Shown: positions 12,212 through 15,093 of the stretch, one piece after another
Numbering within the stretch: position 1 is the first letter of the stretch
How the letters are laid out: the number at the start of each line of letters is the position of its first letter
Source: Candidatus Woesearchaeota archaeon
GTDB taxonomy: Archaea > Nanobdellota > Nanobdellia > Woesearchaeales > GW2011-AR4
Direction of reading: 5' to 3'
Length of the DNA stretch: 62,559 nucleotides
Assembly (NCBI GenBank): GCA_002688775.1
Contig: NZDH01000017.1
Coordinates: forward strand, 1-62,559
Program-made: the position numbers and the translations under genes
The notes under the pieces: generated by a model
Told to the model about the DNA's origin: nothing
Databases searched by the model: none
Seen by the model: the letters and a program-made list of their open reading frames with translations, nothing else

Positions 12212-14116
12212 TCAAACATCCAGATTAACAACTTCCTTTGCGTGCATCTCAATGAACTTTCTTCTTGGCTGTACCTGATCGCCCATCAATAAAGTGAACA
12301 TCTTGTCTGCTTCAACAGCATCATCAACGGTGACTTGTAAAATAGTTCTAGTATCAGGGTCCATTGTTGTTTCCCACAGCTGCTGTGGATTCATCTCACC
12401 TAAACCCTTGTATCGCTGGATTGCAACGCCGTCTTTGCCGAAAACTTCCAGGAATTTTCCCAAATCAGATTCATTATAGATATATTTCATTATTTTTCCT
12501 TTTGTGACTTTATACAATGGGGGCTGGGCAATATAGATATATCCAGCTTCAATCAGTTGGGCAAGATGCCTGTAAAGGAATGTCAACAATAGTGTCCTTA
12601 TGTGCGATCCATCAACATCCGCGTCAGTCATTATTACTATCTTATGGTATCTTGCCTTTTTGATGTCAAATTCTTCTCCGACATTTGTTCCAACGGCAGT
12701 TATCATTGTTGTGATCTCTGTGTTTTCAAAAACTTTATTCAATCTGGCTTTTTCAACATTCAAAATCTTTCCTCTGAGAGGAAGCACAGCCTGAAAATTT
12801 CTATTTCTGCCTTGCTTTGCCGAACCTCCCGCAGAATCTCCCTCAACAAGGAACAATTCGCATTTTGCAGGATCTCTTTCAGAACAATCAGCTAATTTTC
12901 CAGGCAGAGAACCATGATTTAAAGCGCCTTTTCTTCTTGTCAACTCCCTTGCTTTTTGAGCAGCTGCCCTAGCTTGGGCTGCATTGATGCATTTGAAAAC
13001 AACTGATTTTGCTATCTTAGGATTTTCTTCCAGATAAGAGCTTAGCGAATCATTGACAATGCTGTCAACAAGCCCTTTTATTTCAGAATTTCCAAGTTTT
13101 GTTTTTGTCTGGCCTTCAAACTGAGGCTCAGGAATTTTAACAGATATGACAGCAGTTAAGCCTTCCCTCACATCATCGCTTGTCAGCTTCAGGCCTTTCA
13201 TGTTGTTTCTGTCAACATAATTGTTCATGACTCTGGTTAATGCAGTCTTAAATCCAACTAGATGAGTGCCGCCTTCATGAGTGTTGATATTATTTGCAAA
13301 TGTAAAAATACTATCCTGGTAGCTGTCATTGTACTGCATTGCATATTCACATTGCACTCCGTTTTTTTCTTTGCTGAAGTAAATCGTCTTATGCAACGGA
13401 TTTTTATTCTTGTTTAGATACTCTACAAAAGAAATTATTCCGCCATCATATTCAAATTCATTTTTCTTGTTTGCATTTTTATCTTCGACTGTTATTTTAA
13501 TCCCTTTGTTCAAGAATGCTAATTCTCTTAATCTGCTTGATAAAACTTCGAACTTGAATTCAGTTGTTGAAAATATTTCGTCATCAGGAATAAACTTAAT
13601 TTTAGTTCCTGTATCTTTAGGGTCAACATTGCCAAGTATAATCAATTGAGAAACTGGTTTTCCTCTCTCATACGTTTGTTGGTATTGCTTGCCATTTCTT
13701 TTTACTTCAACAAAAAGTTTTTTTGACAAAGCATTTGTTACAGAAATTCCAACACCATGCAAGCCACCGCTTACCTTATACGCCTTCTTGTCGAACTTGC
13801 CGCCTGCGTGAAGCTTTGTCATGACAACTTCAATAGCAGGAATGTTCAACTTTGGATGGATATCGACCGGAATGCCCCTTCCATTGTCGCTTATTGTAAT
13901 AAAGCCGTCATCACCTATCACCACAGAGATCATACTGCAAAATCCCGCTAATGCCTCATCAATGGCGTTGTCAACTGCTTCATACACAAGATGATGCAAA
14001 CCTCTAATAGAAGTATCTCCTACATACATGCTAGGACGTTTCCGAACTGCTGTAAGACCCTCCATTATTTTTATTGATGCTGCACTATATTCTTTCTTAC
14101 TTTCATCATCCGTCAT
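12212..14116 (-). CDS. gyrB: DNA gyrase subunit B
   Basis: [56 protein letters not shown]. Confidence 0.97.
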
Positions 14117-15093
14117 TTTTGGTGTTCTCCGATTTTATATTTCATACACTCTGGAATAAAAGGTTTAATAATTTCAATTAATTTTTTAGAATCCTCTTTT
14201 CTAAATCTTAAATAAAAATATTTTTTATCTCTGAACCCAATTGTGGGATTTAGTCCAAATTTTTTATTAAAATAGTCTCTCATTAGTTTATGTTCCTCAA
14301 GACTAAATGAATTGGTGCATAAAATTATGATATCTTGTGTTCTGCTAAAACTCCCATCATCACAAATCCATATTGCTAGACTTCTTGCATTTAAGTGTTG
14401 TAACATATTTTGATCAATTGTCTTTATATTATCCTTATAAAATAGATTTCTATAATAATTAAAAACTGGATGTGTTTTTGTAGCAAAATTTATTATTTCT
14501 CCTTCTATTCCATTTATTGTTCGTTTTCTTCTATAAAATTCGGAAAATTCAAAATTCCTTAATATTCCATACTTCCAATTTATATAAGCCTCTTGTTTAA
14601 TTGAATGTGAAATTCTAAAGCAAGAATTACGCTCTCTTTTTCTTATAGATGCATCGCCCAATAAACTTCCGATAATTAAATCGTGCTCTTTTTGATCTAT
14701 GAGGTGTAAGGGGTTTTTTTGTAAATCATTATTCCATTTTCTCACTAGTTTAATTAATTCTCTTGCAGGGGCAATATAAATATCATAATTTTGAGCGAAT
14801 AATTTAAGATCTCTATCAGTTCTTAATCCAGAGAGGATTCCAGCTTTACTTTTTTGCAAATTTGGAAACTGGGAAAGGATTCTCCCTTCGTCCTTTGCTA
14901 GAGCAAGTATTCTTGGCTTAATTTTAAATTTCTTGGATAATGCTTGAATATCTCCCTGTTTTTCTATTTTTTGAGATAATTCAACAACATTAAATCTTTT
15001 TCTCACAGCGCTTAATCCACCCAATACTTGAATGTCCTTTGCTTCATAACTCTGGACATTTTTAGGCCCTTGATCCTGCTTGTTTTGTTCCAT
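14113..15093 (-). CDS. LAGLIDADG homing endonuclease (I-SceI-like) with a GyrB-like N-terminal peptide
   Basis: [19 protein letters not shown] leader; [10 protein letters not shown] and LAIWICDDG motifs; stop overlaps the gyrB start (ATGA). Confidence 0.88.

Follow-up and report, generated by a model that had tools for sequence, protein, structure and literature searches.

The 5′ end of gyrB in an archaeon of the DPANN group very probably carries a splicing-free homing element, which is made up of an open reading frame (ORF) for an I-SceI-like LAGLIDADG endonuclease and a portable copy of the first ~27 gyrB codons. The element is in contig NZDH01000017.1 of assembly GCA_002688775.1, a metagenome-assembled genome of a Candidatus Woesearchaeota archaeon (Nanobdellota, Woesearchaeales, GW2011-AR4). 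The whole contig of 62,559 nt was analyzed and is called the window here. An initial annotation of the window had proposed a splicing-free homing element in an archaeal gyrB, and this proposal is supported by the native gyrB leader that stands before the endonuclease sequence, by the foreign 5′ end of the gyrB that follows it, by the recurrence of the same layout in other genomes and by the contigs that bridge both junctions.

All parts of the locus are on the minus strand. The endonuclease ORF was called at 14113..15135, as a 340-residue form with a TTG start at 15135. An in-frame ATG at 15093 opens the peptide MEQNKQ, and because the GyrB of relatives begins at the position of this ATG, the TTG is probably not the real start of the endonuclease ORF and the ATG is the more plausible one, for a protein of 326 residues. 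From the ATG, the ORF reads 33 GyrB-like codons that end with AVRKR (14995..15093; residues 15-47 of the 340-residue form), referred to as the leader, and the endonuclease-specific sequence begins with FNVVEL at 14994. The initial annotation had described both the GyrB-like start and the switch at 14995 into a LAGLIDADG ORF, and both were found at these positions. The endonuclease-specific part (14113..14994) comprises a helical N-terminal domain and an I-SceI-like double LAGLIDADG core. Its TGA stop (14115-14113) overlaps the ATG of the downstream gyrB (14116-14114) by 4 bases as ATGA (14113..14116).

The downstream gyrB (12212-14116) is complete, encoding 634 amino acids with the full Pfam GyrB domain set, and repeats the AVRKR motif at 14050-14036. 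As had been noted together with the ATGA overlap, the AVRKR codons differ between the two copies, reading GCAGTTCGGAAACGT in gyrB and GCTGTGAGAAAAAGA in the upstream copy. The insertion is 959 bp long (14994-14036) and comprises the endonuclease gene and, after it, a gyrB 5′ end of foreign origin. It is located after codon 33 of the resident gyrB, no more than one codon away from the point where the R and P codons of the conserved motif VRKRP meet. The content of guanine plus cytosine (GC) is 25-29% in the endonuclease part vs 36-45% in the gyrB 5′ region. The genome has one copy each of the endonuclease gene and gyrB, with no other gyrB match, and the host contig is an archaeal chromosome that carries a ribosomal protein gene, gyrB and other cellular genes.

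We then retrieved the gyrB loci of 29 relatives, 20 of these loci being from the same genus. The GyrB N-terminus of the genus begins with ME(Q/E/H), continues with a Q/E-rich stretch and then reads SY(E/D)AKDIQ(V/I)L.G(L/I)SAVRKRP. The initial annotation had expected the GyrB of endonuclease-free relatives to match the upstream peptide better than the downstream one, and in all of the same-genus loci (20/20) the N-terminus matched the leader and not the downstream copy. When the endonuclease ORF was used as the tblastn query, its first 47 residues alone matched the gyrB 5′ ends of 21 relatives' loci. Neither the endonuclease nor a second copy of the motif was found at the gyrB loci of the 29 relatives (0/29).

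The sequence before the leader (15094..15298) has TATA-like AT-rich stretches and is presumed to be the native gyrB promoter and 5′ untranslated region, kept in place. Three small ORFs further upstream (15299-15908) have counterparts ahead of gyrB at 10, 10 and 13 of the relatives' loci. Since the genus N-termini match the leader and the upstream ORFs are syntenic, the resident promoter region, the start codon and the first 33 codons are still in place ahead of the insertion, the codons now serving as the N-terminus of the endonuclease.

The downstream gyrB was compared with the same genus. Over the whole protein, the window GyrB is 75-79% identical to 14 genus members, which are 76-90% identical among themselves. 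Within the first ~40 columns of the alignment, it shares an identity of 0.23-0.46 with the genus vs 0.55-0.84 between the members, and its 5′ end is nearer to the GyrB of another family (L017, 0.54-0.75) than to that of its own genus. Genus-level identity resumes from about alignment column 51. The window GyrB has MYVGD and DNAI (codons 49-52 for the latter) where MYIG and DNSI stand in each of the 14 aligned genus members, and the replacement 5′ end shares 56% nucleotide identity with the leader copy. By these comparisons, the first ~27 gyrB codons (MTDDES to AVRKR, 14036..14116) are foreign to the genus, and the foreign stretch possibly extends up to codon 52, a pattern consistent with co-conversion. 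Codons 28 to ~52 (13963..14035) may be the remainder of a co-conversion tract whose boundary is uncertain, and the rest of the gene (12212..13962) is the resident, genus-type gyrB body. The initial annotation had called the 5′ end a recoded replacement. The replacement held up, but the 5′ end keeps the canonical amino acids and is better called foreign, that is, donor-derived and co-converted, than deliberately recoded. Because relatives also vary at synonymous sites, recoding cannot be judged from a single locus; across the family, the signal is strong (see below).

A chimeric contig, in which the gyrB 5′ ends of two organisms were joined around an unrelated endonuclease gene, might be suspected from the metagenomic source of the genome and from the lower GC content of the insert. 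We found 15 runs from 8 studies of marine or seawater metagenomes that contain at least part of the stretch under study. In contigs of 4 runs from 4 studies, positions 14116 and 14995, at which the initial annotation had named misassembly as a risk, were bridged with 0 differences and no joints. One 8.8-kb contig covers the whole stretch, and the contigs of three further runs bridge each junction. Moreover, the architecture recurs in the genomes of further species (47 of 48 loci), in 14 metagenome contigs and among the proteins listed (120; see below). An assembly artefact is thus hardly credible.

The endonuclease ORF is predicted to encode an intact I-SceI-type LAGLIDADG enzyme. Pfam LAGLIDADG_2 (PF03161) covers residues 153-319 with an E value of 1.2e-42, and the search of PDB sequences matched I-SceI (E 2.4e-15). 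In the alignment of 30 homologues, which includes the window protein, the invariant residues are G160 and D161 in the first LAGLIDADG motif (residues 153-163; 14647..14679) and C258, D259, D260 and G261 in the second (residues 253-262; 14350..14379), so that the aspartates of both motifs, D161 and D259/D260, are conserved throughout. The window endonuclease retains all of the family-invariant residues (58/58). The AlphaFold2 model, built from 30 homologues, had a predicted local distance difference test score of 85.7. In the model, the first 32 residues of the 340-residue form, most of the leader included, are disordered, and a helical domain (~41-140) is followed by the double LAGLIDADG core. 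The core has the pseudo-dimeric alpha-beta-beta-alpha-beta-beta-alpha fold, with I-WcaI (E 2e-12) and I-SceI (E 3e-11) as the best Foldseek matches and template modelling (TM) scores of 0.76-0.77 on the target. Since no in-frame ATG occurs between 15093 and residue 244, the full-length enzyme depends on the captured gyrB start.

It could be argued that the insert is removed by splicing, as a group I or group II intron, a bulge-helix-bulge (BHB) intron or an intein. In that case the MEQ leader would be the true GyrB N-terminus, and the downstream copy would be a piece of the insert without significance. An RNA from which 14036-14994 (959 nt) had been excised would indeed read in frame from the leader into the P codon and encode a GyrB of native appearance, and relatives have probable gyrB inteins at another site. 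On the other hand, no Rfam intron family was found over 13800-15400 at E values up to 10, the six weak matches being far below the gathering scores. The co-fold of 50 nt around each junction had an energy of -22.1 kcal/mol vs -18.9 +/- 2.8 kcal/mol for shuffled sequences (~1.1 standard deviations). Neither junction was in a 3-nt bulge beside a 4-bp helix and both were in local hairpins, which is modest evidence, as it comes from one fold of one pair of sequence segments. The absence of BHB pairing and of intein termini, both claimed in the initial annotation, was upheld by the co-fold and by inspection of the termini and the stop.

An intein was considered and rejected, because the insert begins with F, ends in the TGA stop, changes the frame and is followed by P; no Pfam intein splicing domain was found in it. 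Furthermore, at 47 of the 49 occupied loci the downstream copy has retained its ATG, together with a Shine-Dalgarno (SD)-like motif and an N-terminus of the GyrB type, and in the other two it is present and frameshifted. The leaders, in turn, are decayed or lost in several loci (e.g., L034/L086, L058, L059, L079-L081 and L084). This is the reverse of what would be expected for a spliced exon with a dispensable insert and counts against splicing. We therefore consider splicing very improbable and prefer the splicing-free homing element.

In the gyrB of four relatives (G004, G008, G031 and G037, loci L027 and L029 among them), we observed open frames of 1061-1090 amino acids. These frames match GyrB up to residue ~432 and again from residue ~423 on, with ~1.27 kb between the two matches. 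They probably contain inteins in the Toprim region of gyrB, which would be a second colonised site of the same gene.

The initial annotation had suggested a survey of DPANN genomes for the same architecture. In a scan of species-representative genomes, we found 48 loci in records titled Woesearchaeota, Pacearchaeota or Nanoarchaeota, with two titled as Methanosarcinales bins. The endonuclease ORF runs directly into a same-strand gyrB in 47 of the 48 loci, and the contig of the 48th (L089) is cut inside the endonuclease gene. A large protein search gave 258 matches at E <= 1e-3. The 120 matches listed are 59-70% identical to the window endonuclease and ~315-325 amino acids long, and all of these 120 carry a GyrB-like leader (118 recognized by the pattern at the leader/endonuclease junction and 2 by eye), with the I.VL.GL-like GyrB motif kept in 110. 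A search of 50%-identity representatives merged the gyrB-associated family into few clusters and gave 24 matches at E <= 1e-30 and 6909 at E <= 1e-3.

Within the order of the window, a search with the endonuclease body found matches in 11 of 401 genomes, including the window genome (G000), and the element was at gyrB in 3 of the 401 genomes sampled. Two genomes, G174 and G343, are from another family and have a 45-50% identical endonuclease with a decayed GyrB-like N-terminus, the ORF of which overlaps the gyrB start.

More distant relatives of the endonuclease were observed in other settings. In P0137, P0139 and P0146, endonuclease-domain homologues of 30-35% identity, with two LAGLIDADG_2 stretches each, are inside long proteins with intein splicing domains. 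In three genomes of the same order, endonucleases of 31-38% identity (L035:1438-2250, L038:1351-2160 and L039:1321-2139) adjoin a small conserved ORF (~90-115 amino acids) and radA, and these may use a different homing site, possibly an intergenic one. Among the occupied gyrB loci themselves, L050 (3929-5713) has a gyrB after the endonuclease that is without ~45 residues right after MYVGSTGKDG, including the conserved segment with the GLHH and DN..DE motifs; the gap is either a deletion or an assembly fault.

The distribution of the element among close relatives is patchy. In a draw of 25 genomes of the genus (G000 and 24 relatives), gyrB was found in 23, and the element was present only at the G000 locus, so that relatives differ in the presence or absence of the element at one site. 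Other leaders of the genus type were found among the protein matches P0003 (the same as L043), P0017 and P0105. The leader of P0017 and the GyrB N-terminus of L015, an endonuclease-free genus member, agree at 29 of 31 residues, and the two would make a near before-and-after pair of alleles.

The endonuclease and GyrB identities were compared at 23 of the 49 loci, the other 26 having failed the motif filters. Between the window and L043, which is from the same genus, the endonucleases are 67% and the GyrB proteins 79% identical. Between the window and the distant L044, the endonucleases are likewise 67% identical and the GyrB proteins 55%. For L086 and L090, which are from the same order, the values are 44-45% for the endonuclease and 62% for GyrB. 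Among the loci compared, the similarity of the endonuclease is thus decoupled from that of the host, as judged from these identities.

We also analyzed the VRKRP motif next to the insertion point. The endonuclease-free baseline was the 29 loci; the codon comparison parsed 47 of the 49 occupied loci, and the other two (L050 and L077) were read by eye. The downstream copy reads VRKRP in 7 of the 49 occupied loci vs 28 of the 29 endonuclease-free loci. The other 42 downstream copies read VRLRP, VRRRP, VRMRP, VRHRP, VRARP, VRVRP, VRQRP, VKQRP, CRERP, VRQIP or similar variants. The first Arg codon is CGN in 19 of 47 occupied downstream copies, the window copy (CGG) included, vs 1 of 29 endonuclease-free loci. 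The K of the motif is kept in 86 of 118 leaders vs 11 of 49 downstream copies of occupied alleles. Across the 13 codons before the junction, the two copies of an allele share 78% amino-acid and 60% nucleotide identity (22 of the 49 loci), and the median longest run shared by both is 5 nt. The motif changes all fall within ~9 nt of the insertion point, the region in which a LAGLIDADG enzyme would be expected to bind and cut, and this pattern fits a target-site arms race.

Two loci with unusual motifs were observed. L073 (2611-3906) has a 432-residue endonuclease ORF with VRHR in its leader, the variant of its own downstream gyrB (VRHRP), which suggests that one copy was converted by the other or that an allele with a changed motif was invaded again. 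L022 (G039) is the sole endonuclease-free relative with a non-canonical motif, VQKRP, and may carry the footprint of a lost element or a resistant allele.

A subset of the relatives has an extra C exactly at the junction. It comprises 2 genome loci (L044:4030-4060 and L069:3998-4028) and 14 of the 16 metagenome contigs with the same 18-mer (L091-L097, L099-L104 and L106). In the subset, the ORF from the overlapping ATG reads the N-terminal copy to VRRRP and then stops 6-23 codons later, and an intact GyrB body of 601-605 amino acids (1036 in L095) follows in the +1 frame; seven of the frameshift contigs break off after the final residue, Pro. The L044 and L069 genomes have no gyrB match other than the frameshifted gene. 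The 24-nt sequence GTCAGGAGGCGTCCCCGCAATGTA does not vary among 13 distinct sequences, which elsewhere show differences at a median of 34 of 138 positions. Within it, an SD-like AGGAGG is followed by a 3-nt spacer and then by a CCCC run; the codon that comes next in the zero frame, CGC, never occurs among the 7,586 codons of the gyrB bodies of the subset. This geometry resembles that of the +1 frameshift site of bacterial prfB. The cassette is not in the window, and a pattern search found it in none of the 401 genomes of the window's order, so it belongs to lineages outside the order. These features suggest a candidate programmed +1 frameshift that would act as target-site immunity.

We are inclined, with some hesitation, to favor a broader view of the element. 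It would belong to a large and still active DPANN family of splicing-free homing elements in the first gyrB codons, with a captured promoter and start, a portable leader arm, an immune 5′ end and an arms race at VRKRP, and in one lineage the immunity would be a 1-nt insertion read by programmed +1 frameshift.

Several observations weigh against a homing element as the explanation of the locus. The downstream copy in the window keeps the canonical AVRKRP, and relatives vary at its synonymous positions too, so that immunity of the window allele would have to rest on synonymous differences. In the initial annotation the 5′ end had been described as cleavage-resistant; the changes of the motif across the family support this indirectly. 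L055, L059 and L068 are occupied and have neither an amino-acid change in the motif nor a CGN codon. The endonuclease-free baseline is mostly from one genus and most occupied loci are from other orders, so part of the motif contrast could be phylogenetic, although the comparison of leader and downstream copy within the same allele lessens this concern. No RNA run is among the sequencing runs listed as containing the stretch. The closest endonuclease homologue among those listed is only 70% identical, and therefore no very recent transfer is documented. Finally, no endonuclease-free allele of this species was seen in the contigs, which is not evidence of its absence, as contigs drop rare variants.

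Some of these points would fit a relic, in which an old invasion was followed by vertical inheritance only, the endonuclease is inactive or co-opted, and the layout persists as its deletion would damage gyrB. The nearest homologues are 63-70% identical, the missing empty allele would be expected, and the lower identity of the endonuclease than of GyrB between the window and L043 could result from one old invasion with faster evolution of the endonuclease. However, the window copy has lost none of the family-invariant residues, the LAGLIDADG aspartates among them, and the element is patchy within the genus, with the near-identical leader and empty site of P0017 and L015. The diversifying changes of the target motif are also hard to explain without ongoing cleavage pressure, and the endonucleases are more alike between distant hosts than the GyrB proteins of these hosts. 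A relic is thus improbable, and we retain a mobile element as the preferred explanation.

The 4-nt overlap of the endonuclease stop and the gyrB start, together with an SD-like GGAG (14127..14130) located 10 nt 5′ of the gyrB ATG within the C-terminal KYKIGE codons of the endonuclease, suggests that translation of gyrB is coupled to that of the endonuclease ORF, the GGAG being a presumed ribosome-binding motif. For the overlaps, 42 of the 49 loci were parsed. In 39 of these the gyrB start is inside the endonuclease ORF, and the two share 4 to 23 nt, most often 8 nt (24 loci) or 11 nt (9 loci), less often 4 nt (3 loci) and once each 14, 17 and 23 nt; two parsed loci have gaps of +3 and +1 and no overlap. 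In nearly all of the 42 loci, the last endonuclease codons, KYKIGE, encode TATAAAAT..GGAG right before the gyrB ATG.

The element could also be as described with gyrB expressed independently of the endonuclease, either from its own promoter in the endonuclease 3′ end, where the TATA-like TATAAAAT precedes the ATG by ~16-26 nt, or through SD-led initiation of its own. The conserved position of this sequence directly before the ATG and the two loci with gaps would be consistent with such expression, as would the SD-like 4-mers found before 10 of 38 long ORFs in the window vs a 7.5% background. However, TATAAAAT also encodes the conserved KYKIGE, so that its conservation may be due to the protein, and the stop/start overlap is kept in the great majority of the parsed loci (39/42). 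Uncoupled expression of gyrB is possible but, in our view, rather unlikely. A scan with sigma-70 promoter and terminator models, which do not apply to archaea, gave 13 sites vs 12.2 expected. Of the earlier proposal that the element uses the gyrB promoter and start and restores the gene with a coupled 5′ end, the capture of the start stands, as the GyrB of relatives begins at ATG 15093, while promoter use and coupling are plausible from the layout.

We infer the cleavage specificity, the homing pathway, the single transcript, the coupling and the present activity of the window copy from the sequence comparisons described above, and the following mechanism would account for the locus. Both ORFs would be read from one transcript driven by the gyrB promoter, and gyrB would be translated by termination-reinitiation and/or with the SD-like GGAG in the last codons of the endonuclease. 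The enzyme would cut endonuclease-free gyrB alleles at the VRKRP-coding site. During repair of the break, the 5′ end of the recipient would pair with the donor leader and the recipient gene body with the donor gyrB, and with pairing on both flanks, the endonuclease gene and the donor 5′ end would therefore be copied in. A native leader is what break repair predicts, because the sequence of the recipient is retained as far as the break. The leader would serve as a portable left homology arm and make homing independent of synteny. The occupied allele would escape cutting in that its upstream site is split by the insertion and its downstream site differs, synonymously in the window, by amino acids in most relatives and by the 1-nt insertion in some.

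The window protein resembles I-SceI and I-WcaI in sequence (I-SceI, E 2.4e-15), in fold (TM ~0.76) and in the acidic residues of both motifs. Whereas the I-SceI gene belongs to a group I intron in a mitochondrial rRNA gene, no intron is involved at gyrB, and the window protein additionally has a helical domain of ~100 residues at its N-terminus and a disordered leader that derives from the host. In the intron-less homing of the phage T4 Seg and Mob endonucleases, the endonuclease gene is beside the conserved gene that its product cuts, break repair proceeds with co-conversion, and immunity is provided by target-site polymorphism. The gyrB element differs from this type in being inside the coding sequence and fused to the start of the host gene.

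Its nearest counterparts in layout are the fungal mitochondrial elements termed mORFs, which carry a foreign gene terminus and are described in the accessible text of PMC3630166 for Allomyces macrogynus atp6 and for Glomus atp6, atp9, cox2 and nad3. As in the gyrB element, a free-standing endonuclease ORF (LAGLIDADG or GIY-YIG in mORFs) interrupts a coding gene without being part of an intron or intein and brings a foreign duplicate of the gene end that it displaced, by which the reading frame is restored. What is left of the native end resembles close relatives more than the functional copy, and the endonuclease reading frame can be in phase with that of the host gene (PMC3630166, accessible text). 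Unlike the gyrB element, mORFs are organellar and replace the C-terminus, with the native remnant downstream and unexpressed, according to the same text. The gyrB element is on an archaeal chromosome and replaces the N-terminus; its remnant provides promoter, start and leader, and the host gene must reinitiate at the overlapping ATG. It is thus the mirror image of the mORF arrangement, sharing the insertion, the duplicate and the remnant, and differing in that it is neither organellar nor at a gene 3′ end.

The MobA cassette of T4 gene 39 and gene 60, as far as described in the accessible part of 10.1101/2022.08.31.505936, is likewise a free-standing endonuclease in the gene of a type II topoisomerase ATPase subunit and encodes a region homologous to the host sequence that it replaced. 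A translational recoding device at or near the target, the gene 60 bypass, protects the MobA-occupied allele, and the +1 frameshift subset parallels this. Unlike the gyrB element, MobA is an HNH nickase, and the gene is split into two polypeptides with extensions and has a 50-nt bypass. The gyrB element encodes a LAGLIDADG enzyme and a single GyrB polypeptide, with no coding gap or recoding in the window, and is an analogue of the MobA cassette and not a member of its type. In the literature covered, which lacks most subscription journals and supplements, we found no published description of an endonuclease at the gyrB start of archaea, or of any archaeal or 5′-end case. In the accessible text of the archaeal gyrase survey PMC9348778, supplementary trees and alignments aside, the words "endonuclease" and "frameshift" have 0 occurrences.

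A second free-standing LAGLIDADG ORF, unrelated to the first, was observed in the window at 10286-11044 on the minus strand. It encodes 252 amino acids with a match to Pfam LAGLIDADG_3 (E 2.4e-9) and is two genes downstream of gyrB, after the gene of ribosomal protein S3Ae (11313-12083).

A 2026 paper states, in its accessible text, that homing endonuclease genes of the free-standing kind generally have their target sites only between genes, since an insertion would destroy the gene (PMC13619312). A free-standing gene that occupies, outside any intron or intein, the start of the coding sequence of a chromosomal gene that is presumably essential would break the rule as stated there, and would do so by bringing its own spare gene start and borrowing the expression signals of the host. 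An arrangement known from fungal mitochondria and T4-like phages would thereby be extended to archaeal chromosomes and to the 5′ end of a gene. For annotation and phylogeny, it would mean that the N-terminus of gyrB, a widely used marker, has been replaced horizontally in many DPANN genomes, and that short "hypothetical proteins" upstream of gyrB are fusions. The I-SceI relatives of this family, with their conserved and predictable target, could provide a new meganuclease scaffold. The candidate +1 frameshift, if true, would be a programmed frameshift in an archaeal core gene, and the family as a whole would offer a natural experiment in which an endonuclease and its target co-evolve at an invariant protein motif.

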